DNA of 64,000 nucleotides from Bilabrum cf. latius. Taxonomy: Eukaryota. The position numbers and the translations under genes were made by a program. The number at the start of each line of letters is the position of its first letter. Position 1 is the first letter of the stretch. Below, piece by piece: positions 10,471-51,578 of the stretch. The stretch lies in contig OZ237737.1 of the NCBI GenBank assembly GCA_965178125.1, forward strand, positions 1,488,001 through 1,552,000, given 5' to 3'. The notes below the pieces were generated by a model. That model did no database searches. It had not been told where the DNA came from and saw only the letters and a list, made by a program, of their open reading frames with translations.

Positions 10471-10618
10471 TGAAAGTGCGAGTGATGCCTCCGTCGAATT
10501 TTTGCATTAAATGATGGAACAGCACAAAGGTCATGAACAATCAATCCATCTTTGCCTAAATATGTATCCCCGCATAGGGGTTTAAAACTTAAGTTTACAA
10601 GCAGCTATTGTGGTATTA

Positions 10619-13600: not shown

Positions 13601-13633
13601 CAAACTAAATACAATACACGTCCCAACGCGCAT
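10619..13633 (-). CDS. Secreted glycoside-hydrolase-like protein resembling clan GH-D (GH27/31/36); join(13633..12452,12319..10619), about 960 aa, 3 in-frame TAG
   Basis: Signal peptide MRVGTCIVFSLGCLCASA. Splicing yields LS-TYTDNGA. Motifs QLDDWW, YFPDG, LSTGPVGIGD and DGVLLKPDKP resemble raffinose-synthase/alpha-galactosidase-like barrels. TAG at 12074, 11990 and 11927; ends at TGA 10619-10621. Confidence 0.7.
12320..12451 (-). other. Spliceosomal GT-AG intron (132 nt) in the glycosidase-like gene
   Basis: Donor GTAAGA at 12451, pyrimidine tract TCTCCTTCCGTCTCATTCTCTTCC, acceptor CGCAG ending at 12320. It contains an in-frame TAA (12404-12406), so it has to be removed. Confidence 0.75.
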
Positions 13634-14552: not shown

Positions 14553-17500
14553 TCACACTCGGCTACCGCCCGACCGCCTGCCTCCAAGCTTGGCGGCCCC
14601 GCCCTCTACCTTGGACCTGTACGCACCCAGGCCCCTCTGCCCCACCAGCTTCTTCCGGATGTCCTTCAGCGACTCAGAGTTTGGACCCACCCTGCTCAGC
14701 GCGCGCTGGGACCCTTGGCTCTCCACGGGCCCGAACCCCCTCAATGGGGACGCAACCCCTTTCATCTCCTTCTCATCCCCCCCCATGGACCCCGCAGCGC
14801 CCTGCCCTCGCAGCAGGGGGTTGGAGGCGGAAGCGGTCGTCCCCTTGCCCCTGCTGCCGCCCTGCATCGGCTCGCCGGCCCGCGATGCCATCATGGAATC
14901 GAACGCGCGGCGCGTCTTTGCCTTGCTTGCCTTGCCGCTATCGCCCGCCAGACCGCGAGCATGGGCAGCGCCCCTGCGCTCCTCTTCCTTCTGACGAGCC
15001 AGCCGCTGCTCGCGACGGGCCTTGAGCGAAGAACCGCCGTGGCCAGCACCGCCCAAACCGCCCTTCGCGGCCAGAGGGTTCACTGCCACCAACCCGCCCA
15101 TCTTCTCCACCTCGGGGTCTGCTGGGTCAACCAGCGCGGCGAACATGGGGTTGCTCTTGGCGCGCATCGTGGCGCCGGCAAGCAGCTCCACGTGGGACTT
15201 GGGTCTCTTGAGAGACCGGGCTCCCGATGTGGATCCTCCGTCTTCTAGTGCAGGCACTGCCCCGGCCATTGGCTTCTTGGCGGCGTCAATCCTGCCCTTC
15301 TTGTCCCCCTTCTTCTTGCCCATCCCGCAGCACCCGCACTGCTTGGCCAACCAGACTCCCAGTCGCTTGATCTTGATCAGAAGCAGGATCAGGATCGCCA
15401 GCAGCACCAGCAAGTGCAGCACGGCGATCGTCCATCCGATCGCCTCGAACACCTCGTCCCGCGTGCCCACGCCGAGAACACCCGGCGCCAGCAGCATCAT
15501 ACAGAACAAGATCACGGCGCGAGCCAGACCAGTCAGCACGGTGATCCGGAAGATGAAGTAGTGCTGGATCGGCGCGGTAGCGATGACCACGGCCACGTAA
15601 ACCACCTGCTTGAGCAGCAGCACCAGCGTCTGCAGCACGGGCCAGCCCGACAGGAGCACCAAGATGAGCGCAGACAAGAACCGGTCTGCGAGGATGACCA
15701 CGAAGAAGAGCCTATCCTTACCGTGGTACCTCTTGTACAAGGGCCCCAGCGCCAGCCGCATCGTCGGCGACGTCTTGAGGTCCTCAAGAGATTTGGACTG
15801 GATCCAGTAGGCTGCGATGATCACGGCGCCCACGAGGTAGAAGATCATCCAGAACCAGCCGAAGATGTCCATGCCCTCGCCCGAGCACGACTCGCTCAGC
15901 TCGTACACGACCAGCACACTCAACAGGAGGTAGAATGCCATGCAAGTCTTCACGCCGAAACCCACGAAGCGCCAGAACAGCTTGCCGCGCTTGTTGGACG
16001 CCCACTCGTCCGTGTACTTGGAGTACTTGCTCCGCGGGGACGCCGCGGCACCGCCGTCCGGCTTGCTTTCGCCCTCGTCGTCGCTGTTCAAATCGGACTG
16101 CTCCCTGGCCTTGGCCTCCTCCTCGCCATCCATGCCAGCAGCGCCCTTCTCCTCATTATCAGCGCCGGCTTGGCGCAAGTTCAGGCTGGATGCGCCCGCT
16201 GATCCTGGCTTGGCGCGTTCCAGGGCACGCTGCCTGTCCTGGCCAGACCCAGCAGCGATGTTCTTCCGCAGCTTGCCCTGGATGTACCACTCGAGCACTC
16301 CGCACGAGATCACGCCCACCACGGCCACGAGCAACAGAACGATCACCAGTGCGACCACCGCGTACATGAACAAGCTCCTGGGATGGATGCCCAGCGGGTA
16401 CGCTAGCGTGGAAATGGCCGACGGCACGTTCTGGTTGTCGCAGCCCTCGATGGGTTCGAAGGGGAAGCCGCTCTCGGGGTCGATCCACACGTAGTCGAGG
16501 GCATCGGGACCACCGGATGGCCCAGAGCCGAAATCGTCGACTGCTCCATCGCCAGTTGAGTTTCCGACGCCGCTGCCGCCATCCCCTGGGGAATCGCTCG
16601 TACCGTTGTTCTGACCTGCTCCGTCACCGCTCTGGCTCCCGCTGCCGCCTGTGCCTTCGCCGCGGTCTCCCACGGTTGCGTTGCCTCCATCTCCACTGCC
16701 GCTACCGCTTCCGCCGAGCCTTGACCCGTAGCCAGATCCGTACGGCGTGCGGTTGTGTTCTTCGGGCTCGTAATCTGCGAGGCCGGGCGGCGCGCGGGCA
16801 TCATCAACAGCATTCAGCACCGCAGGCATTGGAATCGCGCCGGTAAACGGCACAAACGCAGCCGTCATTGCCTTCAGCACGGGCGGCTGCGTCACATCCA
16901 GCTGTCCGCACATCACGATGAACTGCGCCTAGTCAAGTACGTCAAGCAGTCCGAAGTCGAAGCCGGCCATGCCTCCAACCACGCTCGAGCCAGCACCAAG
17001 TGCTGCCGCTGAGGCGCCACTCGTCGCCCCTGCGGCTGCAGCCACCCCGGCGCCGCCCTGCACCACGGCGATACTGCCCGAGACCCATCCCACGGCTGCT
17101 GCCGTCGCCGCCATGCCATCGTCAGGCGAGGCAGGAGGACCCATCGGCCGGGGTCGTAGGTCGACCGTGTCCACCTTCCCGCCGACCTCACCGCCAGTGT
17201 CGTTGTCCTCGCCGCTGCTGCCGTCGCCGCCGCCACTGTCGGATCCAGGGGTAGGGGTTGGCACAGGCGGAGAGGATGCCTGCGGGGTGGGCTGGGCCGA
17301 TGGCACAGGTCCAACCGTAGGCGGCCTGTGGTCAGGGTCCGTGCCCGGGGGCGCGGCGTCCTCACAGTCGGCCGCACAACTGCTCGCCTCCTCGCCGACC
17401 TCGCACACGCCGTTCCCGCAGATGCCGATCCGGGATGCCGTCGGCGGGAAACTGCGCTGCCTGCAGCTCGTTGCGGTTCCGTTGTTGAGCGGGGACGACA

Positions 17501-20500
17501 TCAAAGCGCTCTGGTCTGCCAGCACAGCGTCCAACTCATGGCTGCCGGGCTCGTTCGACCCGGGAGCAGCAGGCGCCACCTCAACGGTCACCGAGACAGC
17601 ACCGGGAGCGCCTATGACCACAGACCTCACAATCACCCGCTGCACTGACACACCGAGCGCCGCACTCACGTCCCCGGCCACAGCCGCGTTCAGTCGCTGC
17701 CGGAGCGGAGACAGAGCGGACGCATCTGCTACTGCCTCAGCATCTTGGATGAGGCACTTGCTGTGGACTCCCGAAGGGTGTTCCGTGCCGAGCATCAGCA
17801 CAAAGGACGCGGCGCACGAGCTGTCATCGCCTCCGCATACGCCGCAGGCATCGATGGCCTCGGCGCCCGCTTCGCAGCACGAACCGGAAGCATCAAAGGC
17901 AGCACAAGCAGCACCTCCACCCTCACCACTGGGTGCGGGCGCCCACAGCGTGAACGGCTGCGAGTACTGCGTGACCACCTCGGGCTCGCTTGAGCCAGGC
18001 GGCACGATGCTGCACGTGAAGCGCAAGGCGTGGCCAGGGCCTGGGTCGGCTGCCCCGATGCGCACGCCGAGGCCCGGCCAGGACGCCACGCCGTTGCTGG
18101 CTGGAACATCCAATGGTGCGGCACCGTCGATCTCACCGCCGGCACCGTAGCGCACCAGTCCACCGACGCGCAGGTAGCCCGGCTGCTCACCCGAACCTGA
18201 CCCGTCTCCGTCGGTCTTCTTGACCAGGTCCACGCGAACAATAGTGCGGCTGTCACCGGTGACGACCTGCCCGGTGCCGTCCACTAGGCCGATCGACGGA
18301 GTGATTCCCATGGGCCCGCCCAGCACCACGCTGCCAGGTTGTTTGCTCACGCTCACACCAGAGGCAGAACCCGTCGCGTAGATCACAGTGTACCTCGGGA
18401 AACGGCCATCAGCGGTAAGCAGCTGTGCAGAGGTCCAACCCTGGCTCAGCCCGCTGCCCGTCGAGCTCCGGAGGGCGTACTGCGCATCGAAGACGAAGGC
18501 AGCCGGCTTGGTCTCCGGCACCGAGCACCGCAGCATCTCGTCATTCACAACCTTGCATTCCTCGTACAGAGGCACCGCAGACGCGAGGGCCTGGCCTGTC
18601 AGCGGGTCGATGGGAATCATCTAGCACCTGTACACTGCAGCGCCGTTGAACGCAAAGTCGTGGCCCATGACGTCGATCGAGGAGGAGCCGCCGCTGGGAC
18701 CCTCGCGCGGCGTCAGGCCAACCACTGTCGGCGTATCGTCAGCAAGCAGCCCACCGCCAGTCGCACCCCCGGTCCCGCCAGACCCACCGCTAGATCCGCC
18801 AGAGCTGCCACCGGTCGTGCCACCGCCGCCAGTACCCCGGTCGCTCGGGATAGACGGAGGCGCGCACACGCCGAACGAACACTGGAACGTTACGCAGTCA
18901 GAGTCGGCAGAGCAGCTCTCACCCACGGGGCACGGTGGGCAGATGCCACCACCGCAGCGGGCCGTGCAGGCAGACGCATCCGTCGGCGGCACGCAAACTC
19001 CTTGGGCGTTGCACGTCTACGAGAAGCAGTCAATGCCGCTGTTACACCTGTAGTACAGCGGGCAGAGCTTGCCAGCCCCGCAGCCCGCACCGCAGTCAAC
19101 ATCTGACTCACCAATGGCCGGCGTGTGGATCGAGTCGAAGCAGGTGCCAGGGGCACATTGCCCGGGGACACTACCTGCACCCGCGTATCCAACGCACCTC
19201 TGGCTGCCGCATTGACTGCTGGCCGTGCACGCGCCTCCCACAGCCGTGGGCCCGCAGCCCGGCCCGACATCCACGCCAACCTCATTACCGTCCTTCACTC
19301 CGTTGGAGCAGCTCGATGGCGCGGTGCATCGCATGGTTGTGGCATCACACACGATGTCACCACCAACAGCACCGGCACAATCGCTGTCCACGAGGCACGT
19401 GTCGCCAGTATCGCACTTGGCCGGGCAGCTTCCGCTGCAATCCACGCCTGTCTCGTCGCCAGACCGAATGCCGTCGAAGCAGTGCTGCACGGCGCACTGC
19501 AGGTCTTCAGGATGGCAGAAATCTGACTGGCATTCCGAGTGCCGCCGGCAAGCTTCACCAGCCGCCTTCAAGTCCTCCTCGTCATCAGGGTTACTGGTAT
19601 CGGCCGAGCAAATTCCATTGAGGCATAGTCCGACGCAGTCCCCGTGGCTAAGGCAACCGGAAGTGCCGATGGGGCACGGCGAGCACGTGCCACCACACGT
19701 GTTGTTGCCCATCGGGCACGTGAAGACGGGCGTGCCCCCGCCGCCCGTGCCTCCACCTCCGGTCCCGCCGCCACCGGTCCCACCACCGCTGCTACCACCG
19801 CCTGTTCCACCGCCAGTGCCGGACCCAGTGCCACCGCCACCACTACCGCCGCCAGAAGCCGGGGGCTCCGAGCATCTTCTCACGGTTGTGCCGTTCGAAA
19901 GGCTTTCGTCCCTGCAGAATCCGCTGGCGCAGTCAAGATGCGAGTTTGCCTCGCAGCTGTCCCCCACCGAGCACAACTGGCTCGTGCCGAAGCCGCACGA
20001 CAAGCCGGTGCCACTGCTGCCCTCGCACCTCCCGGCAACACAGTCACCGATGCAGTCGGAATCCCGTTCACAAATGCGGCCATCCGCGCATGCATCGCAG
20101 CTCGGCCCACCGCAGTTCCAGTCAGTCTCCTGGCCGTCCTTCTTGGCGTTAGCGCATGAAGGGGCCGCGCAGAACCCAGCAGTGGTGGGTACACCTGCGG
20201 GCGACCCAGCGCCAGCGTCCGTCTGGCAATTCAAAGACTCGCAGTCGGTGTCCAAATTGCAACGGAATTCAGTTCCAATGGGACATCGGCCACAGGTGCC
20301 GCCGCACTCCAAGGCGCCTTCCGAATGGCCGACAGCCCGCACAGAAGCGGTCTCACCCAGCTCAGCTGGAGACATCCTGCCGTCTCTGCACGTGGGTGCC
20401 GCACACTGACCCGAGGAGGTGTCGCAGATACCAGTCGTGCACACATCGTCTCCACCGTTGCCGGCGCAAGTGGTGCCCACGGGGCACTCGTTGTCGCACG

Positions 20501-23500
20501 CAGGCCCACAATCAATACCTGTCTCAAGAACACCACCAGGTGAGTTTCTCACTCCATCCGTGCATGTGGGATCCAGGCACACTCCGAATAGTTGCACGCC
20601 AGAGTTGCAATTCCTCGGATCGCCGCCAGACGAGGATCCAGAACCACAGAGCAGGTCGCAGCCAGAGGATGCGCCACCATCCACGCAAGCCTCGAGACCG
20701 TTCTTCACGCCGTCGCTGCACGACGGTGCCGAGCACTACCCGGGGCTGTCGCTGTCACCCGAGCACACGCCGCTGATGCATTGGGTCCCGATCGTGCAAG
20801 GCGTCGAGTCTGGGCACCTGGCAGCGCATGGACCAGCACAGTCCACCCCGAGCTCGCCCTGATTTTGCACGCCATCCGAGCAGCTCGGGTCTACGCACAG
20901 CCCGAACCGGCAGATGTTGCTCGTGCACTGGGACGCAGCACTGCACTGGGAGCCAGTGCTGCAGCTGGGGCACCTGCCAGCAACATCTCCGCAGTCACCC
21001 TCGGGTGCCTCGCCCTGGTTCACGATCCCGTCGTCGCAAGTTGGCAGTGACACCGCCTGGCAGCGGCCCTCGAAGCATGAGTTCGACTAGCAGTCGCGAG
21101 GCGTGCTACAAGTCTCTCCCACGCCGCATAACCTCGGCTGCCCTTCACCACCATCCGTGCATGCCTCATCGCCGTTCTTGATACCGTCATCATCACTGGG
21201 TGCTAGGCAAATTCCCGTTATGTTGTTGCAGTTCATGCTGGTGCAGTCCTGACTGATCTCGCACTGCAGGCCGGTCGAGCACCCGCCGCACACGATGCCT
21301 CCGCAGTCCATGTCGGTCTCGTCCTGGTTCCGGATGCCGTCGGTGCAGCTTGGCGGGCGGCAGAAACCACCGCCAGAGACATCGCACACCGAACCAATCG
21401 AGCAGTCACTGGCGCTGGCGCAACGCTGCTCTGCGGTGGGCAAGTAGAGCATGATATCGTCGTCAGGTGTGTTGCCAGACGCATCCTCGACCGTGTCGGC
21501 CTCAACCAACACAGCGTACCGAGTGGAGGGCGCCGAGAAGAGCTTGGGACCCGTGCCGCTTTCAGGGTCGGGCAGCGTCAGGATGACGCTCGACCCGCTG
21601 ATCTGGGTGCCCCCGGCAGCATCTGAACCAGCCCCCGGAGCGGGCGCGGTCCAGAGCACAGCCCACGTCTTGACCTCGTCAACAGTGGGTGTCACGAGCT
21701 GGGGCACCACCTGGAGCTGCCGGCGCCCACCGGCATCCACGGATGTCCCGTTCGTCGATTCGCTTGCGGCACCGCGATCAACTCGGATCGAAACACCATC
21801 GATAGTCGTGTCGGTGGATTGAAGGCCCGCAAATAGCACACGCTCGTTGAATGTCAGGCGGATCTCCGACAGAGGGTCACGAGTGCTGACAAAGGATGAG
21901 TTCGGGCCCACTGCTGCAGGCACCGCAGCGCCTGCCCTCGGCACAGTGCTGACCAAGATTGGGCCATCCACGTCAGCTGCGGTTGTGAAGGTCCAGAAAG
22001 AGCGAGATCCATCCCCGAGGGATGTGAACGCATTCCCGGCTGCATCGAGCAGACTAGCAGTGACAGTCGTGCTGGTGCCCTCGATGGTGGTCTCAGCAGC
22101 GTCGATCGTCACCGAGTAGGTCGCTCCGGGGTCCGCAATGCTGCTGCTGTCCAACGCAATTGACAAGCGTCTATCACCCACAACGGAGACTCTAAAATCG
22201 TCGCCAATTGTCATTTCAACAATCCTAGTCCATGTCGGGTCCGTGGTCGCATCGCCTGCAGTCAGCTGTTTCCATACCGAGACGACGCCTGCACCCAGCA
22301 GGATCTTCTCGTTGAACGTGATGGACAGCTGAGTCAGGCCAGTAGCCACACCTGTGGTATCCCTAGCGGGCACAAAGGTGGCGGGCTCGGGCGCTGACAC
22401 ATCCACAGTGTCGAAAGACATGTACCGGATGGGAGCCGTCGTAGCTAATTGCAGGCTCCACGTCGAAGGCACGCTGCCAAAGATGCCGCCGAACTCAAGC
22501 TCGGCACCATCGATGATGAACCCGCGAGACATGGTCACTTCGTACCGAGACGACTCATCAAGAGACTGCCCTGCAGGCAGGGACACGAGCAGAGTGTCGT
22601 CACTGATGCTGACCGCATCGCTAACATCCGAGTCTCCAAGACGCACGTCCAGTGCACTCGTGCCCGTCCGCGTGTTGCGAACGCGCAGACGCGCCGTGTC
22701 CGTGTCTCCAAGGCTGACACGCTCTGAGAACACAATGCGGATGGTCGACAGCGTGATCGCCACGTCCTCCTCCATGGGGCTCGGAGACGTTGACAGGACC
22801 GTCGGCGCAGTTGCATCCGGAACGGTAACGAACTGCCACTCGCCTGCATCGATTCCCTCGAAGTAGTTGCTCTGTGAGTCGCGGAAGGCCGTACCCGACA
22901 CGCGAACCTCGTATCTGGTGAACTCCTTGCTGACTGTAGTCGTGGAGAATCTGACGTACACGAATCGCCCGCTGAACGAGAGAGAGCTAGACGTGGCCGA
23001 CAGAGACTGGAGTGGCGCCGCACCGCCCTGCTCCCAGACCTCCACAGCGCCCCCACCAGTGCCGCGCCTGACGCTCTCATCAAACTCGATAGTGACCGTG
23101 CGGAGGCCAACCGAAACATTCCTTGTGTCGTGCACCGGCACAATGGAGCTCAGAGTGGGAGCGATCCAGTCAGCCGTACGCACCAGCCAGGCGGCGTTCG
23201 AGGCTGTCACATCCTAGTTGGATCCGCTGCCAGACGTGGCATTCAGCGGACCGACGCCAACGAAGGCGTTCCCGCTCAAGTCTTGAACGAACCCTCGGTC
23301 GATCACAATGGCATACTGCGTGTCAGAGCGTGCCCAAGAATCCATGTCAAGGTCGACGGCCAGGAAGGTGCCAGTCGTCGGAGCTAACACAGCCCCGTCA
23401 CCTGCCGAGTCGGCACCTGATGCAGCGTCCCGCGATGCGACAACTTGCTCGGTTGCACCTGACGCACTGCCACCAACGAATGCCATTCGCGATCCGTCCG

Positions 23501-26500
23501 AGGCAGCCGCGGCTGGAATGGACGCCACCTAGGCTCCGTCCGGCATGCGGTACACGTGCAGCTGTGCACCACTGCCGCGAGCCGGCAGTCGCACCGTCTC
23601 CCCGAAGGACAGCACCACGGCGCTCTCACCGCCGTCCATGCCGGTGTCTTCCAGTCGCAGCACCTGGCTACTGGACGACACGGAGGTGCGCCGAGAGGAC
23701 AGCGACGGCGGGTACGTGTCAGGCTCCACCCTGTAGCTGGGTGCTCCGGCTGCCACCGTCAGCACACCCTGGAATGGGTTGCCCGCCTGATCCTCCACGA
23801 AACCGGTGGGCAACCGGAGGGCGAACCGCAGGCCGTACGAACGCAGCGTGGATGAAGGGAGCCTCAGCTCAACGGTTCTGGCAGCAGCACCGAGCGCGCT
23901 CGTGATGCGCACTACTGACGGGCGCGATGCGTCCAGCACGGCGACAGCCAGACCAGATTCCGTGTTAACTACTTCGATCGTGCCTTCTCCCTGCTGCACC
24001 GCCTCGGACATGAGGAGCCGGAGGGTCGTGGTACCGAAAGCGACATCGGTGCTGTCGATGGCGGGCGAGCCCGACACGATTGTCGGTGCCACCGTGTCAA
24101 GGGACGAGAAGCGCCAAACCACATCCGCGAGCGGGTTGCGAGCCGGACTGGCATCCGTGATGGCCGACCCAGCCCCGCTGCTAGCTCCAGTGCGGATAGC
24201 TACCTCGTAGGTGCCACTGGACTCTGCCACTGTCTCGAGGAAGCCTGGAGCGTCCAGGACCAGCACCCTGCCCGCCTGGATGAAACCGTCGAAGCTGGTA
24301 GACACAGTGCTCTCACCCGTGTACGCGGGATCCAGCGAGTCCTCGTCCGATGGCGGCACAACGGCCCCATTGCTTGACACAGGCACAAGGACCGAATCCA
24401 CGCGAACTTGTGATGTGTTCGTCATCGACAAGGACACACTGGCACCAGTTCGAGTGTTTGTAATGGTGGCGTTTGCGTTGGCCAGTGCACCCTGGTGGAC
24501 CAACACCGCCTCGCTAAGAACCGCAGCCACCCTTAGCTCAGTGGCAGACAGATCCAGAGGAGCTGACGCCGGTCCAGGCACAAGCTTAACGGCACCGGGC
24601 GCAGTCGTGTCGGCAACTGTTTCAAAGGTCCAAGAGAACATTCCGAGAGACTTCCCGGATAGATCCGCGAAAGCTCCTGGTACGTCGTAGACCGGGACAC
24701 TTGAGTTGTACGCTGCGTTGTACGACTCGCTTAAATTGGCGGCGTTCCACGCGGCTTCTGCGACTTCCATGACTGGCATGGTGCGAGGTGCTGCAGTCAC
24801 GTTGACCATGTACATTTCGCCGTGCAATGAAGTTGCAGCTGCACGGAGGCGCAGGCTTACGGTGTCGCCAGAGATGGACACTCTCGTCGAATCATCCGTT
24901 GCGAAACGCTCCACCAGCTCCCACCCGTTCTCGCCAGCACCGCGCCCCGCCTTGGCACTCGCACCCGAGTGGATGTCAGCGATCGTGCGGGGCACAAACA
25001 GACCCGTGTCTGAGCCGAGCTCACCGAACGCCAACGCCTCGGCGTAGGAAGAGCTATCTGCGATCACATCCGCTGCCTTGAGCGCCTGGGCACCCGCCAC
25101 CTTGCGGTACACAGAGATTCGGCCGCCGGGCATGGGCTGCACCTCCTCGCTCATCTTGAGCTGAGCGCTGGTGAGACGCACCTGCACGTCGCTGGCACCC
25201 GAGATGGGCGTGCTCTGCGCAACGGAAGGGGGCAGCACGTCCGAGGTAGAGAAGACCCAGGAGGTGGAGGACCGGAATCCGAGGAACGAGTTGCCCGACA
25301 TGTCTTCCAGCAGCCCGCTGTCCACGCGGATGTGGTACTCCGTGCGGTCGAGAGCCACGGCTGTCGACGGCAGCTGCACGGACACGTGAGCCCTAGCAAA
25401 TGGACCGGCCGCATCGTTGATGAGCCTGTCGTTCCGGGAATCGCGCAGGGTGATGTTCAGGCGATCCGGCTGTGCGGTGAAGGTGACCAAGCTGCCGACG
25501 CTGCGCACCACCCTGAGGGAAAGGCCTCGATCCGACGCGGTGGAAGACACTCGAGCGGCTTCATCCAATACGAAGCTGATGCTGCGCACCTGCGTGGGCA
25601 CATCGGTACGGCCGCGGCGAGGAGTGAGAACCAGCACCCTTGGTGGCACCCTGTCGGGCTCGGTTCGGAACGACCACTGCGAAGCACCGGCAATGCCTGG
25701 CAGCGGCAGGCCATCGCTGTCCACCAGCTTGTTCGACCCTACAGTTACACGGTAAAGCGCAGAATAGTAGCCGAGCGCACCCTCGGGCACGGGCACAGTG
25801 ATGGCACTGCACCCGATCGAGAGCTCCTCGGCTGCCACGGTGGCCACCTAATGCAGAACTTCGTTGCCGCCCGAGTCGTACGCCACTCTATGCACAGTGA
25901 CAACGGTGTCGCTCCCGGCCACTGACGAGGCGGCCTTGACCTGTTCGGACACGCGGATGGTCAGCTGCCTCGTTGAGACAAGCACTCCGCTTGCTCCGTG
26001 GGCGGGCACAGTGGAAACGACCTTGGGAGGCTCACCCGATGCACTCGTTCTGATGGTCCATGCAGATGCCTCCTGCACACTAGAACCCACCGACTCGCCA
26101 GGGAATGCCCCGAAGAAGTGCACACCCGTTGCAGCGTCCACCAGACTTGAGTTGTCCATCAGCACTCGGTACCATGCCGATGAGCGACCCAAAGCTTCGT
26201 TACTCTTGAACGTAAAGTGAAGCTTCGAAGCCATACCGGCGATGGATTGCAAGCTGGTGCCAACATCGCCCGCTGAGACGTTCCATGTCGGCTGCACCCC
26301 GTCCCACTGCGAGTGGTACATGGCGCCGCTTGCTCCGCCCCACCAACCGAGAGACGCACCGCTGGTCTCCAACGGGATCGAGGGTGCGCTGGAGAGCCGG
26401 GAGCGGAGTGCAACGTGGCGAGCGAACTCGTCCTGCGTTTGGCGAAGTCCTGCGGTGAGCGCCAGGTCTTCACCTGCCTCCAGGATTTCTTTCGCAGCGT

Positions 26501-41500: not shown

Positions 41501-44500
41501 CCTGCGACCTACCGCCGCCGTACATCCGTTGGGCCTTCACCAGCACACTGCCGCCACTGCCAGCGCCGCCGAATTGGTCGCCCCCCGACAGCCTGCTGCC
41601 TTGGCCTCCGTTAGATCGGACAAGGACGGTACCAGCGGTAGCTCCGAACCATAGCGTGTCCGCGCGTATGCTGACAGCCCCACCGCCTGGTCCACCATGG
41701 CCGGAGATGCCACCGGGCATCGTGTCTTTGAGTGCAGCTCCACCAGGGGACCCAAAGTCGGTGGGATTTTTTATGCTGCCGTACACCGTTTCAACCGACG
41801 AGTACGACTCCGGGGTGTCTGCGGCGGAGCATCCGGAGCGACGGTCCACATAGCAGGACCGAGAACCGACGCCGCCATACGTCCCTCCGGCTCCAGGCTC
41901 GTTCTCTACGCACGTGCGGCGGGTCGGGGCCACGGGGCGACCTGGCGCGTTCGTGTCGGAAAACCTGAAGCCCCGGAGATTCGTGTCGATGATTTCGTTG
42001 ACGTACACGTGCCCAGTGCTCTCGATTGAAGCGCGAGAGGCAGAGAACGAGGCACCTGAAATGTGCAGGTGCGACTCCGGCACCTCTCGAGCCAACTCCA
42101 CGTCGCAGAGGTGCCCATAGCATCTGGTCTCGGACGAATAGGCGGCATGCCACCTGGGAACACCGCAGCCGAAGCGTATCTCGGACACCCCGACATATCT
42201 GTAGGACGAACTAGAGTGGCGCATGCGCCACAGGGCCGTCTTGACTGGCTCAAAGTGAAGCACGCCCGATGCACCTTCGCGGCGGACCTCGTTGTGATCG
42301 TGAGCTCTGAACTAGCCTGGGGCGAGCCTCCAGCTGGCACCATTGTCGATGGAGTATTCAAAGAACATGTACCGCGTATGAGTTGCCCAAGAGTGCCAAG
42401 CGGTAAGATGAATGGAATCGAACCAGACAGGCTCCGTAAAGTTGAACACGATCATCGCATCGATCGCACCCATGATCCCAGTCTCGATGTCGTTGTCCAC
42501 AAGAGCAGCCTTTGTCTGAGAAATAGGATTGGCTACCCAGGTGCCGGCTGTCTAAAGAGCAGTAGCCTAGACATCAAACGCGCTGATAGGGTAGACCCCC
42601 CCTGTACCCAGCTTCTGACTGCTCTCGGCACAGTAGGGCGCCAGCTTGGCGGCATGCTGGCTGCTCCCGGATGCGTACGACGAATCGACGACGCGAACTC
42701 TGCGAGTGGCCCTGAGTTTCCCCTCCAGCCTCATGGAAAGCGCGTCCACCTCGATGGAGGAGGGCCCTGTGATCTCTGCGGCGCTGGTCACGTGCACCTT
42801 CCGGGCCCTCAGAGAGCGGCCGTCAGGGATGTCTGCCCGGGCGGCACTGGACACGACCACTTCGTCGATGTAGTCGGGCTGCTTCGGCAAGAGCTCACCT
42901 GCGTGAACACCGAACAAGGGGTCATTCTCCGTTGCTTGCGCCCCGAGCATCTGCAGAAGAGCTGTGCGCTGCGTGCTCGACATGGAGGAGTTCTGGCCAG
43001 CATACGCAGACACCGAATCGACGTACGGGCGATCGCTGGATGGCCAGGGGGTCAGGGCCGAAGTGGAATTGTGCGATGTCTGCAGCACCACCTGTGCATA
43101 CCCTCCCACGTCAAGAAGCTAGGTACCTGCAGAACCATAGCACACGAACGTCTGACTGGTGCCCCCGTTGGCGGTGGCGGTGACAACGGCCTTCTCCCAC
43201 GTGGCACTTCGAACAGCGACTCGGCCTCCAGATCCACCACCACCGTGGTAGCTGCTCGTCCATGACCCGCCTCCAGTCACGTCGATGTCAAAACCACCTT
43301 CCAGGCTGCCAGCTTCGATCACCACAGTGCCTCCCGAGCCACCACCGGCATTCACCAGGCCACCCGAATGACCTCTGCCGTTCTATGCCCGGGATTCAAG
43401 CTAATCCGCGATTCTACCCGCATGGATCACGCCTCTGGGTCGGCCCCTGCTTGCCATGGACTCGCCAGCTCTGGGACCCGATGGGGCTGACCGCTCGCTC
43501 CATGGCATCGAATCCGGCAGCAGGCCTCGCCTGAACGCCTAAAGCTCTGCCTCCGACGGCACCTTGGCAGGCGCCGCGAGGGGGTAGGAGGCACCCATCG
43601 CGTGGAGTGTGGCATTCGTCACAGATGCAGCCACTGCCGCGCCGTGCGTCGCGTTGATCACAATGCGACCTCCACCACGCCCCCCGCGACCCACCTACGA
43701 GTCAAGAGTCTTCGTGTAGTCAAAACTGGACCCACCGCCCGAGCCCCAGCCCATGGAACCAGCATACATCTCAAACCATGCCACGCTGGAGTTGTACTGC
43801 CCGTTGGAAGCGCTCTCGTACGTGCTGAACCCGAGCATCTCGATGCCGTTCCCGGCAGGGTGCTCCATGCTGCCCGTGGCGAACCCACCGCGTGAGTGGT
43901 GCGACGGGTTGCTGTTGCTCGGCGTCCCGCACTCGGCCTGGTCCAAGTAGCACGACCGGGAGCCGCTGCCACCGTGCCCCGCACCAGCACCAGAACGCCT
44001 CGTGCGGCACCTGCTGCCAGTGAGGCGGGGAGGCGCGCCAGGGCCCTCGTCCGAATCGAAGCCCCGCTCGCTCACGCTGACCTGTCCGTTGAGCACGACG
44101 CGGGGAGCGCTGATGGTCACGTTAGATCCTTGGATCAGCCCCTCGTGCAAAAAGATGCTGTCGGGTCTGCCAATGTCCACGCGCACAGCGCATCCGTCTC
44201 CGTTGCAACCCAACTGTGACGTCGGTTCGAGCTCGAGAAGCATAGGCCGGCACATGAACTGCATTTCCCCGACCCCAGTAGATCCAGACGACCTATACTG
44301 CAGCTTAATGTGGCGAGTGAGCGATGGCTACGGCTCATCGTGGCTGTGTATGCCGGTCTGGTAGTACCGCGCCGACCAAGTGCCCTCGGGCCGGGCATGG
44401 CCCGTTAGATCGGTGATAGCCCAGCCGTTGTTGCTTCGCAGATTGCCGGAGCTGTAGTCGTTTGTATGGTGAACGCTCTGCCAGTCCAATGACGATGGAT

Positions 44501-47500
44501 CAGACTCTCTGATGGAATGCGTCGTCACCATCCAGTCGTGGTTGTTCATCAGTGACAATTGATTGATCGAAGTGCCCGTGACCAGCACGTGCGAAACAGG
44601 CACCACGGACGGGAACTTGACGGCAATAAAGCTCCTTGATTGACCTGTGGTAACCAAATATGTATCCCTGCGACCGTCTTTCGTTGCGTTGGGGCTCCTG
44701 TACGGGTATGAAGAAGTCGTTGTGTGCCAAGGGGTGTGGTCGTAGATCTCATAATCCAGCTCCAGGGTCGCGTCAGGCCTGCGCACGACGCGTCCGTGGT
44801 ACGAACTGTTGACGCTGCGAACAGTGCACGACTCAGCAATCCCGGGGTCCTCAGGCCCAGGGTAAAAGGCACTCGTCCCAAGCGCTTGAGCGGAGAGGAT
44901 AGGCAGCTCACCCTTGAGCGTGTCCTCTAGCTGGAGCGGCTCGGCAGGCAGCAACGAGCTGCCCGTGGTAGACACAGCCATGGAGCGCGTGGCCCACTCT
45001 GCCAGCTTGGCTGCTCGGCGAGCACGCTCCGCGTCCAGGTATGCCTTGCCTCGGTGGGAGACGTCAGTGAGTGTCAGGTCGTCTTCGGCCGTGATGTGCC
45101 CAACGGCGTGGATCTGAGCAGCATCCAGGGTCCACCGGTGGCCGGTGAGAATCGAGCCGGATTCTACCTCGACACGGTGTGCCACCAGCCAGCCCTTGTC
45201 CGCCGGCATGCGCACGTAGCCAGACCCGGTGATGACCAGCCGATCCAGCGGGATGCGCCGGGTGAGGACATCATCAGTGATCGGCGTGTACACATCGGGG
45301 TCGTACGCAGACACGCCGCTTGTGGTACGGGCAGTGATACGAGCATGGTCTTTGAGGACCAGAGAGTGGTGCACCGCCCCTGTGGTAGAATTCCCGGTCG
45401 CATTCTTTCGCAGCAGCGAGATCCACAGGGTCCCGCTTGCGCCGTACGCGGGCCGGTTGTCTACTCCCCAGCCTTCGCAGTTCGACCAGCCACCGCGGGT
45501 CAACACACTAATGCTCTGGTGCGACCAACGGGTGGCCTTGATCAGGACGCGCCCACCGGCACCGCAGCCGCTCTCGTACGAACTGTGCCAGCCGCCGCCA
45601 CCGTCGGCGCTCACCTACCCGCGGCCCTCCACGGCCCCCCTCGGACTTTCCACGCGAATGGTGCCGGCGGAGCCGCCTCCACCACCCACGTTGCTGCTTG
45701 TCACCCGGGTGCCACTCCCGCCACTTGCTCTGATCGCGTTGGAAGTAGAAATACCGACGTCACCGTCTTCAGCGACGATCCGCACAAAACCGCCGCCGCG
45801 CCCGCCGCTGCCGCTGCGCATCACACGGTTCTCGTCGTGGTGCGCAGCGCGCCCACCACCGGACCCGGAGGTCCACGGATCGGACGAGTACCCGTACGCC
45901 AACCCACCCTCGGTCAGTGGGTTGTCCCTGTAGTCATCGATAGCAGACACAGCGTAGCGATTCGCGCCGCCGACGCCACCGTGCCCCGCTCCAGGCCCAC
46001 TGACCTCGCCGACGCAGATCTCGTTGCGGGTCGTCACCGGGGCGCCTTCGCCTTCGTTGCTGGCTGGTCCCAGCCCCGATGAATCGATACTGCCCCGAAT
46101 ATCTACGGACGACGACCGAATGGTCACGTTGCCAGCTTGGATAGTGCCTGACACGCTGGTCCGCACGAGCAGAGGCTGTGCTGCCGAGTAGGTGGGGAAC
46201 TGGTCCGGCTCCTCCACCCCACCAGCAGACTCGAGCTTGTCTGGGGCATCCAAGGCGGGATAGGTGGTCTCTCCCAGTGGACCGGCCTCGATCCGTACAG
46301 AGCACACGCTGTCCGGTTGGTCGGTCTACACGGCTGCCGCAGCCTCATTTGCTTCGTCTTCACTGCGCCCGAGGGCCAGTGCCGCCCGCTTTGCCTCCTC
46401 CTGCAGCCTGTGAAGCCTAAGGTCCTCCCCGGTGCACTCCATCCTCGCAGAGTCCAGCAGCTGCACCGACCGGGCCCTGCACTCGAATGCCGCCTCCTCA
46501 AGCCGAAGCCATTGCCTCATCGTGTGCGACACTACCCTGAAGCTTCGCGTTCGAATAGGTTTGAAATGCATCTGAGACCACGCGCTAGGGGCATGGGTAA
46601 TAGAAAGCGTACTGCCACCCGCACCAGTATCCACCGGCTGGTATGCGTTCGTGTTGCCAGTCAGGCTGGCAGGAAGATCATCAGGCTCAGGAAGGTAATC
46701 CAGCCGCTATTCCTCAATACCGCCGTTTGTAGGCTCCCTGAAACGGAAGGTGTTGATGACGACGGGCGTCTCCCATCGGAACTCGATGATGCTCCAACCA
46801 GACGAGTACACTTGGATGTTGGTGCTGGCCCTGTTGTCCTTGAGCTCGTGGCCAGGTCCTCCTAGATTCGTGCCTTCACCTTCTCTCAGTGTATTCGAAT
46901 ACCATCCCAGCGTGTAATTGCGAAGCATCGCCGCCTCCTAATGGGGAGTCAGCACTCCGGTAGCACCAGACATCATGCGCTGCCCTTCTGGGCACATGTG
47001 CCAGGACGCCGTGCTCTCAACGTGCCGAGACATGGGAGCCATCGTGGCATCGGGCTAGGGTACTACCTCTGCCCCCGACTTGACGGGCGACGTGTCATCG
47101 GACTGCAGGCCCTCCAGCCCATCGTTGCCCTCAAACGTGCCGTTGCCGGTGGCCACACGGACCACCGCTCGGCGCCTCCCCCGCACCGTCCCCTCCAGCT
47201 TGACCTCGTCGGCGTTGAGCACCAGCGCGTCTGTTTCGATCCGGGCAGCAGCGCTGACACGCACCGCGCCGACACGAACCTCGGAGGCGTTCGGGAAACG
47301 GACCACCGCATTGGAGGCGACTGCAAGCACGCCAAGGTCACGGGGCAGGCGGCCTGCCGGGCCACCCCCACGGTGGGCAGCAGGAACCAGGGGCGTGTGC
47401 TCCCCGTGCGTCGACTGCCCGTATGGTTGCGTCACGATGAGGTCCTTACGCCTGTCTCCGTCTTCGATCCACACGGTGCCAGATGCTGCCGAACACGCCG

Positions 47501-50500
47501 AGCCGCCGGAACCACCGGTGGCTTGCAATCGTGAATCGAGAATGCGCATCCATTCGGTACCAACAGCGCTGACTCGGCCACCGGCACCACTCCCGGCGTA
47601 ATTGTTGCTGGATCCGCGAGATCCAATGGCCCGCAGATGCCCGCGGCCGGCCAGGTACTTGCCCATCAGAGTCACGCTGCCTCCCGCGCCGCCGCCACCG
47701 CCAGCAGCAGCCGAGTAGGGCGCCACTTCGCCGTAGGCGTGTAGCGTGGACGACGAACCCAAACTGACGAAGCTCTCAGCTTGCAGCCAGATCCTGCCAC
47801 CGCCAGAACCACCGCGACCGCCACGCACGTACGATGCTTGGGCTGCACCGGACCCGCCACCGCTGCCGTAGGCGAATGGCCGGTCGATCGAACGGGTCGA
47901 CAGAAGAGCGCCCGCGCCAGACGCAACAGTGGTGGGCGACGTGTCAAGCGCCTGCAGCACCACGATGGCAGACCCAGTGCCACTAGTCACGTCCTGCGAT
48001 TCGTCGTTTCCGGCGTAAGCCGCCCCACCGATCGGCCGCGGGCTGCACGCGTCGGAGGACGAGCACGAGGCACCGCCAGTGCCGGCGTGACCAGCCCCAC
48101 CCCCGCCTGCAGTGGTGTACCCGCAACGAGGCACCCGCAGCGGCGGTCGACGCCCCGCCCCCGGCCCCGAATCGCTGGGGTGCCCCCTCGCCGATACGTC
48201 AATGGCCCCTTCGATCTCCATCTCCCGGGCGTTCACCAGCACAGTGGAGCCGTGGATCGATGCCACCTGCTCGATGGCAAGCCTGCCGCCGAGGGAGGAC
48301 ACGTCTGCGGCCACGGCGCAGTACCTCGACTTGCAGTGCACCTCGCCGTGGTACGTGGTTGAGATGAACCGCAGGCGCATGCCAGCCATCACCATGCCGT
48401 CGCCTGCACCCGCTGACGGGTCGGAAGAGTCAACTCCTGCAGCGTCCACGCCACGGCCCTGCTGGCGCGTCCCGCACTCGAAGCTGAGGTGCGAGAGGGC
48501 GATGTAGCTATTGGACGGCTTGTACAGCTCGAAGGCCACCACCTTTACAAGGGCCCGGTCAAACGGCACCGTGAAGGGCTCCCCGTCGGCGGCCTGCAGC
48601 GAGGTCAGCGTGGAGAGGCGCACGTGCGGAGCTACCTTCCACACGGTCGTGCCCTGCTCCCGGGTGGTCTGGTACCTCAGCTGGGAAGTTTGAAGCCAGC
48701 TGGGACCGCCATGCGAGTCGCCTCCACCGCGTTTCCGAATAGCGAGCCGCACCGCACTGATGGTCACGGGGTTCTAGAAAGTAGCCCTGACAAAGTTGTG
48801 CGACTGCCGGGCCGTCACGACTCCAGTCTCGCTGTCCTCGTCGTCCTGCAGGCTCTCCCTGGACGGCTTAAGCTTGCGATCAAAGAAGTCCGTCGAGTCG
48901 TCCCAGGCCGAAGTGTTGGAGAGGGTCCAGGCTCGCAGTGCCCCCCTGCCTGGACAAGTTGGCACCTCGTCCCCGACCAGAGGGCCCTCGTCGTTGACAC
49001 CGCTGCCCATGGTGCTGACGGCCACCTGGTCTCCGTCCGGATCGTCGTCTGCATAGCTGGAAGCAGGCAGGGCACGGGCGGCGTCCTCGTCCTCGATGCC
49101 CTGCGTGGTTTGCAGCACGCCAGAGAGACCCACAAGAGTGCCCATCGCGTCCACCGAGGCAGAGCGCATGAAGAGCAGCGGGCCCACAGGCACGCGCCGG
49201 CCCTCTGCAATGGTGCCGTTGGGCAGGGGCAGAACGGCGCCGGCCGCCACGGACGCATCGAGCATGAGCTTGCGCGGCTGCGAAAACACCGCGCCAGCAG
49301 GCAGATGCGGGTACGCGTTGCCCCTCCACGGGTTTGAGTTGGTCCCCAGCAGCCAGGGCTGCCTGCTGTCGGCCTCGCTGCCCGGGATGCCGCTCCCGAT
49401 GAGTGGAAGAGACCCAGTGCCTCCCCCCTGCGCGATATACGACTCACCAGGTAGCTCGTAGTCGGGCTATGCGGCGACCCGTCCGTCCATCATGGCTTCG
49501 TCCGAGTAGCGGGAGCCGGAGGCTGGGTCTGCCGCGAGCAGGGACATCTGCTGCACCCTGACCCGAGTGGCAGCGAGCTCAATCACGGGGGCCCATGCCA
49601 GCGCGTCCTGTGGGGCGTTCGAGATGGACGCGGGTGACGAGGAGGAGGAGATCGGCGGCGGGTTCATGCCAAACTTTAGCTGCTCCTCGACCGGCACATC
49701 CTTGGCAGCAGAGGCGGCTCCCCCAAGGGCCGCCGCCCGCCGCCAGAGGGCTGCCTTGGCTCCGGAGCGAAGCACCGCAAGGCCCAGTTCATCCGCGCTC
49801 GCGGCAGACGAGATCGAGACCGTCCCGCCCGCCTCAGGCGCGGCGTTGGCGTCCTCCGCGGCCCAGTTGACCCCGGGGTGCGGCGCAGTGGCGTTGACCC
49901 CTCCCGTGGCGAGCACCTCGTCCCAGGCGAAGAGGCCGGCGGCGGTGCACGGGGGCAGCGGGGTGGCGTGGTAGCGAGTGCTGGTAGCGTAGCGCCCGTT
50001 GTAGCTGCCAATGCCGCCGTCCAGTCGCAGCTGCCCGCTCGCCGCGCTGCTCGTGTCTCTCCTGTAGAGGTAGGCAGCCTCCGAGGCGCTGATGCCCTGG
50101 GAGTTGGCCAGGTTGAGCACCGCAGTGCAGTGCCCCAGCTCGTCGTAGTCCGCCTCGAAGGGCTCAGGGGCGTTCGTGAGCACCACCACGGTGCCTCCCG
50201 CCCCTGTGCCCCAGGCAGCGCTGTTCCCCACGGCCGATGTCCTCGCGATGATGGACTGCGGGAGGTGCTTCTGACCCCCGCTGCTCGCCAGGTGCACGGC
50301 GATGCGGCCGCCGGAGCCGGTGCCCGCGCGGTAGCTGGGGTGGCAAAAAGTACCGCCAGATGCGATCAGGTGTCCCCTGCCGCGCACCTGCTGGGCGTGG
50401 ATGCGGATGGTGCCGCCCGCGCCGCCACCGCCGCACGCTCCTCCGCTGAAGCTGCCGCCTGTGCCGCTGCTATCGATGCGAGAGCCAGAATCCATTGAAA

Positions 50501-51188
50501 CATTGACGGCAGAACGTAAAATCACCACGCCGCCGCCGCGTCCGCCGCGGCCAAGGCGCTCGGAGAAAGTGCCGTCCAGCCTGTATCCCGCGCCACCCCC
50601 GCTTCCAGCCGAGTTTGGCACAATGGCAGAGCCGAATGCGTTGCCACCGACTGGCAGGTCCGTGTCTGATGTAGAACAGCCAGATCCAGCCGTGCGGTAC
50701 TGGCTGGTGCCACCTTTCCCGCCGTGCCCGCCGCCTCCCCCCGAGACGACAGCGTCGCAGCCAGCTAGGCTTCCGTTCGATGGCTTTCCAGGCCCCTCTT
50801 CTTCCGCAAGTCCCCGGCCGGTGGTCAGCAGCTGGGCGCTATCTTGAAGATATATGTTTCCTGAAGTTGTGTTGATTTCGATTCGACCAGCGGTCAGTTG
50901 GCCGTCGATTTGGGCGCTTCCCGCGACCACGGTGATGCGGCACTGCACATTCGAGCACGTCACCGAGCCTCCTTGGCGAATTTCAAGGTTCCCGGATCCA
51001 GACGCGTGCACTGCAAGCTCATTGTCAATAACATGGGCGCTGGAAACGACACATGTGGTATCCAATGTCCCGCTGTCGCAGGGGAAGGCGGCTTGTCCCG
51101 CGGCCATCATCGGCAGGAAGCACGCGCTGAATGCCAGAACCGCAAGGGTTGCTAGATTCGCGCGAGCCTTGCCCGTGTGCAGCCTCAT
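14553..51188 (-). CDS. Giant single-exon multidomain cell-surface/multipass membrane protein, about 12,211 aa, 49 in-frame TAG
   Basis: The chain of minus-strand ORFs from 51494 to 14553 lies in one frame. I read every gap and found only TAG: 49467, 48774, 47055, 46938, 46707, 46326, 45615, 44328, 43695, 43539, 43401, 43383, 43119, 42567, 42552, 42312, 41178, 40677, 39519, 38925, 37971, 37773, 35241, 35019, 34110, 32589, 32280, 32277, 31860, 30897, 30678, 30417, 29994, 29817, 28992, 28848, 28830, 27915, 27642, 26919, 26628, 25848, 23529, 23214, 21087, 20736, 19017, 18621, 16929. The start at 51188 gives the signal peptide MRLHTGKARANLATLAVLAFSACFLPMMAAG (the frame stays open a little further upstream). 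Ends at TGA 14553-14555. Confidence 0.88.
15310..16960 (-). other. Multipass (about 7 TM) TRP/FLC-like membrane domain of the giant protein, followed by a basic cytoplasmic tail
   Basis: LD*AQFIVMCGQL, then hydrophobic helices and the pattern LGPLYKRY....FFVVIL..RFLSALILVLL...PVLQ......VYVAVV...AP, typical of the Pfam TRP (fungal FLC/Pkd2-like) region. The tail has NPM/NPL motifs. Confidence 0.6.
18860..21420 (-). repeat. Cys-rich disulfide repeat array within the giant CDS
   Basis: Many copies of C.DG..N..E[TS][DG]VDCG..C..C..G..C....[DQ]C.S..C...C, interrupted by Gly/Thr linkers (GGGTGSGTGGG). Confidence 0.85.
21430..28890 (-). repeat. About 12 bacterial-type Ig-like (Big_5/SbsA-like) repeats within the giant CDS
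   Basis: Repeated D..[AP]P.[VI].S..P......V...I.[LI].F[SN]E.V ... Y.V.[VI]..G...D..GN.F.G....W.F.T (e.g. DTVAPTIVSGSP, DATAPTVLSTSP, DWIAPTLSSIVP, DVDGPILVSTVP). Several carry long insertions. Confidence 0.75.
28900..29320 (-). other. Fibronectin type III-like domain within the giant CDS
   Basis: PDAPRTV...IEVQWTRP...IWGYEVQ...FRVRSFGPSGFSDWS. The last strand is visible only when the TAG at 28992 is read through. Confidence 0.7.
29350..51080 (-). repeat. 12 diverged Gly-rich protein modules within the giant CDS, most followed by an F5/8-type-C (discoidin/galactose-binding)-like domain
   Basis: Recurring consensus G.G....GPG / GGG[HY]GG.GG / YG....P..[FY]GSGGG / GG.GGG.I.[LI] / GGG[AS]GG[ST][IV] / G[AS]GGR[IV]A[IV] / G.AGT, with cores near 50420, 47690, 45670, 43340, 41560, 39790, 38070, 36450, 34640, 33340, 31090 and 29550. 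Spacers carry L.DG...T, F..PV.[IV]..[IF], [LF]EYS.DGG.TW, F.P......[WI]R and G..E..F.C. Boundaries are approximate. Confidence 0.75.
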
Positions 51189-51578
51189 GCTGGGCTTCAC
51201 CGATGCCAGATTTACTTGGGAGGCCAGATAAGTCTCTCTCGTTGCTCTATCTGCGAGATATGGCGCGACGTTTGCAAGGGCAAGGCGTGGAGGCATTATC
51301 GTGCAAGTTTCGGCCATCCAATTCCCATCACGTACCTCCAGTATCGAAACTTGGTAAATATTATCCTTTGTGTGGAAGCTCTCCTGAATTGAAGGCCAAA
51401 TAAAGTTGGAGCAGGGTTGTTTCCCTGCGCAACTATGCGATCGTCGGTGCGCCGTGGGCAACGTTGCACTTGGTCGCAAAAAAGAAAGTGGCAAACTTGA
51501 AGCCCGTCACTCATTTGTCCCGATTATTTCTTAAATGAATGTCCCTGGTGGGCACTGTCAAGCTATCTGTTCAAACAA

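Follow-up and report, generated by a model that had tools for sequence, protein, structure and literature searches.

Can a reading frame of 36.6 kb that falls apart under the standard genetic code be one gene, and what would such a gene encode? The question is posed by a 64,000-nucleotide stretch of the genome of Bilabrum cf. latius (contig OZ237737.1 of assembly GCA_965178125.1, positions 1,488,001 to 1,552,000), referred to here as the window, whose minus strand a first-pass annotation had read from 51188 to 14553 as a single-exon gene for a surface protein of roughly 12,200 residues. Our analysis indicates that the frame is probably (we would put it at about 0.7) a single genuine nuclear gene, from a GC-rich eukaryote in which TAG is a sense codon, and that it encodes a type-I-like surface protein.

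The reading frame and its genetic code

Translation of the open reading frames (ORFs) of the window revealed at 51188..14553 on the minus strand one frame of 12,211 codons plus a stop, with the ATG at 51188 and the TGA at 14555-14553, exactly as first proposed. This coding sequence (CDS) holds 49 in-frame TAG codons and no TAA, and TGA is found solely at its end. With TAG read as a residue, the open stretch reaches from 51494 to 14553 on the same strand (12,313 codons counted from an upstream TTG, with the same 49 TAG); residue 1 in what follows is the Met of the ATG at 51188. Across the same 36.6 kb, the two remaining forward frames contain 205 and 245 TGA and 24 and 28 TAA codons, and because they are so packed with stops a chance open frame is excluded. 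In 37 of 40 intervals of 900 nt across the CDS, GC content peaked at the third codon position (mean GC by codon position 0.614, 0.564, and 0.704), and the coding signal therefore spans the CDS from end to end. Translation table 11 splits the frame, and because its longest piece is 834 residues the gene is hidden from a standard-code reading, as had been claimed. Standard-code annotation would break it into dozens of fragments of at most that size.

The use of TAG was followed in ten ORFs of the window, namely the giant CDS and those at 3-6716(+), 6898-10470(+), 10619-12400(-), 12404-13633(-), 51579-52382(-), 53606-57634(-), 57730-59754(+), 59842-61368(-), and 61551-63260(-). Their 20,000 codons include 83 in-frame TAG but neither TAA nor TGA; every one of the ten contains in-frame TAG, and their stops are TGA in seven, TAA in three, and TAG in none. 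Eukaryotic genes are among them, encoding an ARM-repeat protein, a WD40 plus M20 peptidase protein, an RWD protein, and the mitochondrial ribosomal protein uL3m. If TAG is glutamine, it accounts for approximately 11.5% of the Gln codons in these ORFs (83 TAG, 533 CAG, and 104 CAA).

Two sites were informative as to the residue. P0155, a database fragment 95% identical to the C-terminus of the giant protein (771 of 814 positions), has Q at the TAG site of the window. At the sole TAG site of the uL3m gene, 120 homologues have Q in 58 cases, L in 34, G in 24, M in 2, and H in 2; Q is found in 12 of the best 16, five of these with the identical context NFAGQPASHGNSK, and the residues at this site in the three top-ranked PDB chains are G, L, and Q. 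This is the pattern of NCBI table 15 (TAG = Gln, TAA and TGA = stop), and the earlier advice to translate with that table was right in effect. These comparisons argue that TAG is read as a sense codon, very probably for Gln, with TAA and TGA as stops; the reality of the giant gene is independent of which residue TAG encodes. Scans for tRNA genes and Rfam families gave 0 hits each in the 64-kb window, hence no suppressor tRNA was detected there. The best named matches of uL3m were from stramenopiles (Chrysoparadoxa, oomycetes, Cafeteria), with green algae scoring nearly the same, and full-text literature searches, supplements aside, listed no paper on a stramenopile with UAG as Gln.

The continuity of the frame was compared with other sequence sets. 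In X1, possibly the source of the window sequence, one 62-kb contig spans 31501-51500 with 0 differences. X5, X6, and X8, from three other studies, are colinear with the same interval, and no mismatch or indel is listed for any of them. The first 16,587 nt of a 33,930-nt X5 contig align to 31501-48087; if the contig is colinear throughout, its far end would lie near 14158, about 395 nt past the stop, and this fits the presence in X5 of a 0.98 share of the sampled words from 14001-24000. Collapse or chimerism at repeats is unlikely, since the twelve N-terminal modules described below are merely 24-29% identical to one another. The assembly chimera at repeat boundaries that the first-pass annotation had named as a possible refutation is made unlikely by both the colinear independent assemblies and the divergence of the repeats.

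One X5 contig (record 11) bears on the 5' end of the gene. It joins 51250 to 51336 and then continues to 51373, skipping 85 nt (51251..51335, minus strand) that read GTACGT...TCTCGCAG and are bounded by GT..AG on the strand of the gene. The 3' end of the skipped segment (..CGCAG) resembles those of the introns in two neighboring genes. All three ATGs upstream of 51188 fall within these 85 nt, the observed 38-nt part of the leader exon (51336..51373, minus strand) contains none, and in the joined leader the first ATG is that at 51188, which opens the signal-like segment MRLHTGKARANLATLAVLAFSACFLPMMAAG. On this evidence the CDS is a single exon and the gene probably has a 5' leader intron, of which this contig gives a hint; the claim of a single exon thus holds for the coding sequence but probably not for the gene. 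The kind of sequencing run behind X5 is not on record. Other contig joints, at 32486>47683, 45609>50414, and 47696>50412, were set aside as cross-matches rather than splicing; each has 20-21 nt on its short side, lies in a place rich in Gly codons, and comes from a single contig.

Immediately upstream, also on the minus strand, is the uL3m gene (51579-52560), with a GT..AG intron that ends at 52383 in ...ATCCGCAG; the distance from the uL3m stop to the leader seen for the giant gene is only about 200 nt. On the other side, the minus-strand ORFs at 12404-13633 and 10619-12400 belong to one gene as separate exons, and the intron between them (about 132 nt, 12451-12320, GTAAGA...GCTCGCAG) contains an apparent TAA "stop"; the product of this gene (10619-13633) has no Pfam family.

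Domains of the giant protein

The predicted product has a calculated mass of 1.259 MDa with TAG read as Gln, in keeping with the more than 1 MDa expected from the first reading, and is rich in Gly (13.6%), Ser (11.0%), and Ala (10.7%). Its ectodomain carries 68 N-glycosylation sequons and 230 Cys. Residues 1-31 (51096..51188, on the minus strand like all features of the protein) resemble a signal peptide, as had been annotated, with a hydrophobic segment at residues 10-31 and similar starts in homologues. By hydropathy, a signal-like segment is found at the N-terminus alone and membrane segments at the C-terminus alone. Searches of the whole protein, in three pieces, against PDB sequences gave 0 matches at E <= 0.01, and the sole row from an NCBIfam scan was AgmC_N at 14.4 bits, compared with a cut-off of 275.

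The N-terminal part of the chain, residues 32-7290 (29319..51095), consists of twelve Gly-rich modules, the number given by the first-pass annotation and also by the motif G[SAC]GG[RA][IVLA], which matches exactly 12 times. Alignment of the 12 modules (A1; window 28929-51098) showed them to be 24-29% identical, with 22 invariant columns that are nearly all Gly and Cys, along with Pro. A jelly-roll block of the discoidin/CBM32 kind follows the Gly-rich part in nine of the 12; modules 9, 11, and 12 lack it. Module 6 was modeled by AlphaFold2 with A1 (mean pLDDT 68.6, pTM 0.65), giving a beta-helix over approximately residues 1-430 of the module and a beta sandwich at 461-591; the prediction is poor for 410-499.

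The helix of this model was compared with 48,161 chains using VIA-align, and the HMW1 secretion domain ranked first (2odl_A, Z 13.5, rmsd 5.6, 226 aligned), followed by EtpA (8cpk_A, Z 12.6), Vag8 (Z 10.8), HxuA (Z 10.5), and pertactin (2iou_H, Z 9.7). The best match of the sandwich, residues 461-591, was IFT25 (Z 9.0, rmsd 3.1, 109 aligned); modules of the chitosan-binding and CBM32 kinds came next (Z 8.2-8.6), with F5/8-C domains also close (Z 8 to 9). Foldseek with the same model found nothing at E <= 0.001; its best rows were IFT25, HSPC034, and CBM32 at E 1e-3 to 1e-2, the best of them at 1.2e-3. Pfam F5_F8_type_C (PF00754) was detected in module 8 only; the total of 34.7 bits is above the cut-off of 28.2, which none of the individual stretches reaches. 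The discoidin-like part of the original description is therefore seen both by Pfam in module 8 and by fold matching of module 6, and on the strength of the model the Gly-rich module is predicted to be a right-handed parallel beta-helix with an adhesin-like fold.

The middle region is built of smaller units. An FN3-like segment had been called at residues 7291-7420 (28929..29318); it is visible by eye only, and the call went unsupported when residues 7250-7420 were searched alone against Pfam at E <= 5, a sequence-level search that returned chance-level rows only. An HMM built from the protein's own repeats detected ten Big_5-like (bacterial Ig-like) domains, which substantiates the Ig-like array of the first reading. 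One of them stands apart at residues 7556-7661 (28206..28523; 69.5 bits with the own-repeat HMM), and nine form an array at residues 8384-9706 (22071..26039), where Pfam PF13205 also matches. PF13205 scored 69.6 bits (3 stretches) and 108.9 bits (4 stretches), both above the cut-off of 23.6. The approximately 720 residues between them (7662-8383; 26040..28205) had no match in Pfam, NCBIfam, or PDB sequences.

A Cys-rich array follows at residues 9920-10778 (18855..21431) and was likewise confirmed, with about 15 repeats of about 52 residues and the consensus PxCxDG...E...DCGG..C..C..G..C....DC.S..C....G.C..P; 112 of the 930 residues in 9901-10830 are Cys. Searches of Pfam, NCBIfam, and the PDB assigned this array to no family. 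When its repeat profile was searched against the PDB, the best row (E 0.0087) was a 40-residue peptide judged not meaningful.

Between this array and the membrane, residues 10817-11330 comprise a TIG-like start, two Cys motifs, a segment that had been called SEA-like, and a Pro/Ser/Thr stalk. The first of these, at 18444..18740, holds the motif DTPTVVGLTPREGPSGG (18687-18737) and had been named IPT/TIG; PF01833 scored it at 11.6 bits (E 0.3), under the cut-off of 20.9, and we retain it as TIG-like below threshold. The juxtamembrane region at 17229..17852 contains, in order, the DACGVCGGDDSSC motif, an alpha/beta segment, the CGNGVCEVGEEASSCAADC motif, and the stalk. The motifs quoted in the first-pass annotation are thus present where it placed them, and its stalk, multipass segments, and tail agree with hydropathy and composition. 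No tool confirmed its SEA-like segment: sequence searches of the juxtamembrane segment gave no Pfam SEA row at E <= 1 and no PDB sequence match. Searching the region from TIG to stalk against the PDB gave rows at E 0.59 and 0.91 only, the second being an ADAMTS5 chain at the CGVCGG motif.

Residues 11373-11939 (15372..17072) match PF06011, the "TRP" membrane domain of Flc and Pkd2 type, at 56.5 bits against a gathering cut-off of 28.5. The profile is covered colinearly from position 5 to 401 of 426, and the halves searched alone scored 37 bits (N half, profile 5-182) and 29 bits (C half, 196-401). Hydropathy predicted seven membrane segments, the first at 11607-11630 and the other six within 11741-11940, although the helix count is uncertain. 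The profile match assigns the C-terminal multipass domain to PF06011. It is followed by a basic, low-complexity cytoplasmic tail of 271 residues (14556..15368) that starts with the Cys cluster KQCGCCGMG. The "membrane signalling unit" of the earlier description has in this way gained a recognizable family for its membrane part, and the signalling part is still a matter of inference.

Relatives, comparable systems, and neighboring genes

In a search of 1.84 billion cluster representatives, the A1 profile found 9,679 at E <= 0.001, 5,080 at E <= 1e-10, and 1,469 at E <= 1e-30. Most of these relatives are multi-repeat proteins of 1,000-7,000 residues, with E-values down to 3e-282. Ten clusters were looked up and four had names, two of which were just "hypothetical protein"; the others were an Auribacterota "CARDB domain-containing protein" of 4,985 residues and a Nanoarchaeota "LamG-like" protein of 6,614 residues. 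By sequence, the beta-helix module is widespread in bacteria, archaea, and eukaryotes, and Pfam reported no model over it in the giant protein or in the 10 relatives scanned.

The unit of helix plus jelly roll is matched by P0001/P0151, P0003, P0006, P0007, P0024, and P0032 at 25-39% identity. P0151 (5,172 residues) and P0003 begin with a signal peptide and then AFTCD.G....CVVS, and together with L001, a GC-rich metagenome contig, they share with the giant protein both its N-terminal start and the helix-plus-jelly-roll unit at 27-39% identity. The homologous ORF of L001 (4898-20683, plus strand) has the same signal peptide and AFTCD.G....CVVS start and the same module order, and it runs for 5,262 codons, none of them TAG, until it leaves the end of the contig. 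The homologue in this standard-code relative is therefore unbroken over 5,100 residues or more. An ORF of 879 codons, likewise truncated by the end of the contig, lies upstream of the homologous ORF on the opposite strand, and L001 shows no synteny with the uL3m gene of the window.

The C-terminal half behaved differently in these searches. Among 154 stored proteins, a Big_5-like match was seen in eight and the membrane domain was matched by P0155 alone; the Cys-rich array, the juxtamembrane region, residues 7662-8383, and the FN3-like piece had no match there. The C-terminal 862 residues had no homologue among longer proteins or JGI metagenome contigs, and proteins of similar length gave only P0155 (95-96% identical). 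Since many database proteins are fragments and the C-terminal searches rely on shared words or patterns, the lack of a homologue with the same domain order is a weak negative. The first-pass annotation had not recognized the architecture as a described protein; no full match emerged from our searches either, but the N-terminal module belongs to a large family with clear homologues.

For the membrane domain the nearest described proteins are fungal. Fission-yeast Pkd2 is presumably itself a carrier of PF06011. In the parts of the literature consulted, PF06011 is given as the TRP domain of fungal Flc1-family proteins, which are active in calcium homeostasis, are about 766 residues long, and in most but not all cases carry a preceding ML-like TRP_N domain (PMC9600462); Pkd2 of fission yeast is described as homologous to the Flc proteins of budding yeast (PMC6727746), and membrane stretch is reported to activate the calcium permeability of the former (PMC9727806). 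Like fungal Flc1, Flc2, and Pkd2, the giant protein has a multipass domain matching PF06011 and then a long cytoplasmic tail. Unlike the fungal Flc proteins, it has no TRP_N, and about 11,300 residues of adhesin-like repeats take its place. The titles and opening abstract lines of the papers listed for PF06011 name no giant fused form.

Polycystin-1 and other PKD-REJ receptors fuse a very large modular ectodomain of lectin-like and Ig-like units to a multipass domain related to the TRP type. The likeness to the giant protein is confined to this logic of a large ectodomain and a multipass domain in one chain, and the membrane domain differs in being of the PF06011 type.

The likeness to bacterial adhesins (HMW1, EtpA, FHA, pertactin, Vag8, HxuA) is that of the right-handed parallel beta-helix predicted for the module. 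They differ in having no sequence match to the giant protein, which is eukaryotic, has a signal peptide and its own membrane domain in place of a two-partner or autotransporter route, and carries its module twelve times in tandem, paired with jelly rolls. The giant multi-module proteins of metagenomes and metagenome-assembled genomes (P0151, L001, and the Auribacterota and Nanoarchaeota proteins above) share the Gly-rich beta-helix module, whereas the membrane domain, the Cys-rich array, and the juxtamembrane region of the giant protein are unmatched among them; many of these members are fragments, which makes that absence weak.

Protists and bacteria commonly have giant surface proteins of repetitive sequence. 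Among described giant beta-helical adhesives of protists, the nearest, as far as the consulted part of the report on them goes, are the Trailins, adhesive trail proteins of diatoms that include CaTrailin4 of 894 kDa (10.1101/2023.03.06.531300). As described there, they too are very large, repetitive, secreted protist proteins with beta-helical domains of a kind common in bacteria, built on the CAA domain (PF20597) and with no membrane anchor, whereas the giant protein has a multipass anchor. Pfam scans of the giant protein did not report CAA/pAdhesive_15 (PF20597).

Further genes of the window were noted in passing. A WD40 plus M20-peptidase fusion protein of 1,342 residues is encoded at 53609-57634 on the minus strand, its M20 domain interrupted by a long (Ala-Gly)n run and by the short tandem repeats REL(A/T)GEH and SSEDNAMAGARRG. 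ORFs at 6898-10467 (plus), 59845-61368 (minus), and 61554-63260 (minus) would give proteins of 508-1,190 residues; all have in-frame TAGs and no Pfam family, and the last is Cys-rich with a hydrophobic end and may be another surface protein.

A proposed anchored filament and its alternatives

The above considerations are best accommodated by a giant surface filament that is adhesive, binds glycans, and has a TRP-like domain as its anchor. The beta-helix and lectin modules would bind glycans or surfaces, whether of prey, a substrate, a partner cell, or the cell's own coat; the Ig-like and disulfide-rich arrays, together with the Pro/Ser/Thr stalk, would hold these binding modules far from the cell; and the PF06011 domain would anchor the filament in the membrane. 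As a rough guess, the filament of beta-helix and lectin modules would probably be hundreds of nanometers long. Prey capture, flow sensing, and signalling, which were put forward with the first reading, would be conceivable roles, and we infer them from the architecture. The PF06011 domain might in addition convert pulling on the filament to an ion (Ca2+) signal, which would make the protein a single-chain analogue of polycystin-1-type receptors; we consider this a tentative proposal. The most specific version, in which the filament is continuous with a Flc/Pkd2-type TRP-like channel domain and a pull on a particle, prey, or surface gates ion entry directly, so that a family of single-chain tethered mechanoreceptors has stayed hidden from standard-code gene calling in a TAG-recoded lineage, seems to us unlikely.

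Several observations weigh against this account of the gene and its product. As to the code, the name Gln for TAG comes from the two informative sites. In the distant homologue L001 (27% identical), Q occurs at none of the 18 positions aligned to TAG (V at 5, S at 3), the likelihoods of R, T, Q, and V for the TAG residue lie within about 3.4 log units, and the columns of the internal repeats at TAG favor R, S, Q, and K, with Leu disfavored. Ordinary Gln codons aligned to L001 keep Q at only 9 of 122 positions, and naming the residue from L001 or from the internal repeats was set aside as non-discriminating. As to gene structure, none of the 15 runs is on record as RNA, X5 and X6 are no more than guessed to be, and a single transcript is a prediction from the sequence; the leader intron is seen in a single X5 contig with 38 nt on its short side. 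A loose scan for splice motifs inside the ORF gave 47 candidates, none supported, and sequence alone is compatible with short in-frame introns. The GC content of these candidates is coding-like, 0.56-0.76 versus 0.50-0.55 for the three introns seen, and the scan is evidence neither for nor against internal introns.

As to the product, the PF06011 match is weak in absolute terms, the ML-like TRP_N domain (PF14558) was absent from the Pfam scans of the giant protein, and so, in the scans of every piece, were the PKD, REJ, GPS/GAIN, PLAT, and PKD_channel families. An AlphaFold2 model of the membrane domain from a two-row alignment was unusable (pLDDT 36.8). Binding, localization, and channel activity are predictions from sequence and fold.

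The alternative that survives best keeps the same protein and gives it a purely structural part in a cell coat, scale, extracellular matrix, or adhesive, with PF06011 serving as an anchor or trafficking module and no signalling. All folds of the ectodomain are of structural, adhesin, or lectin types, this analysis yielded no evidence for channel function of the PF06011 domain, and the Trailins, so far as the part of the report consulted describes them, are giant beta-helical adhesives with no signalling part (bioRxiv 10.1101/2023.03.06.531300). A single helix would suffice as an anchor, however, and the giant protein keeps the PF06011 domain whole and colinear, along with the 271-residue tail; both domain and tail are 95% conserved in P0155. 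We give this alternative a substantial minority share of the probability.

Less probable by a good deal is a luminal protein of the ER, vacuole, or a secretory or extrusive organelle, in which PF06011 would serve the homeostasis of calcium or a cofactor, in the manner of Flc, and the giant "ectodomain" would be cargo or matrix inside the lumen. Fungal PF06011 proteins are linked with calcium homeostasis and flavin transport in what was consulted of one source (PMC9600462), and Pkd2 is placed at the ER as well as the plasma membrane in the consulted part of another (PMC11333956); the N-glycosylation sequons, the many Cys, and the lectin and Ig-like arrays nevertheless fit an exposed surface equally well. 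Close to refuted is the reading in which several genes or an assembly chimera share the frame, or in which it is a decaying standard-code pseudogene with real TAG stops, for although table 11 yields only short pieces and the runs lack an RNA record, it is opposed by 12,211 codons with no TAA or internal TGA against the hundreds of TGA in the other frames, by in-frame TAG in all ten ORFs examined and a TAG stop in none, by the uniform coding signal and the colinear independent assemblies, by a coherent domain order with its signal peptide and membrane segments each at one end, and by the L001 homologue, likewise one ORF of more than 5,000 codons.

The surface filament encoded by this frame would be of a known kind, that of giant modular adhesin-like surface proteins, and it stands out for its recoded frame, the length of its one coding exon, and its fusion to PF06011. 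An ectodomain of adhesin scale joined to such a domain was matched by nothing in the searches made; if the fusion is real, it would be a test case for the coupling of Flc/Pkd2-type domains to an extracellular tether. The beta-helix module, for its part, defines a very large family that still lacks a Pfam model. If the reading presented here is true, pipelines that miss the reassignment of TAG lose one of the largest proteins of this organism, and they cut every other gene of the window as well.

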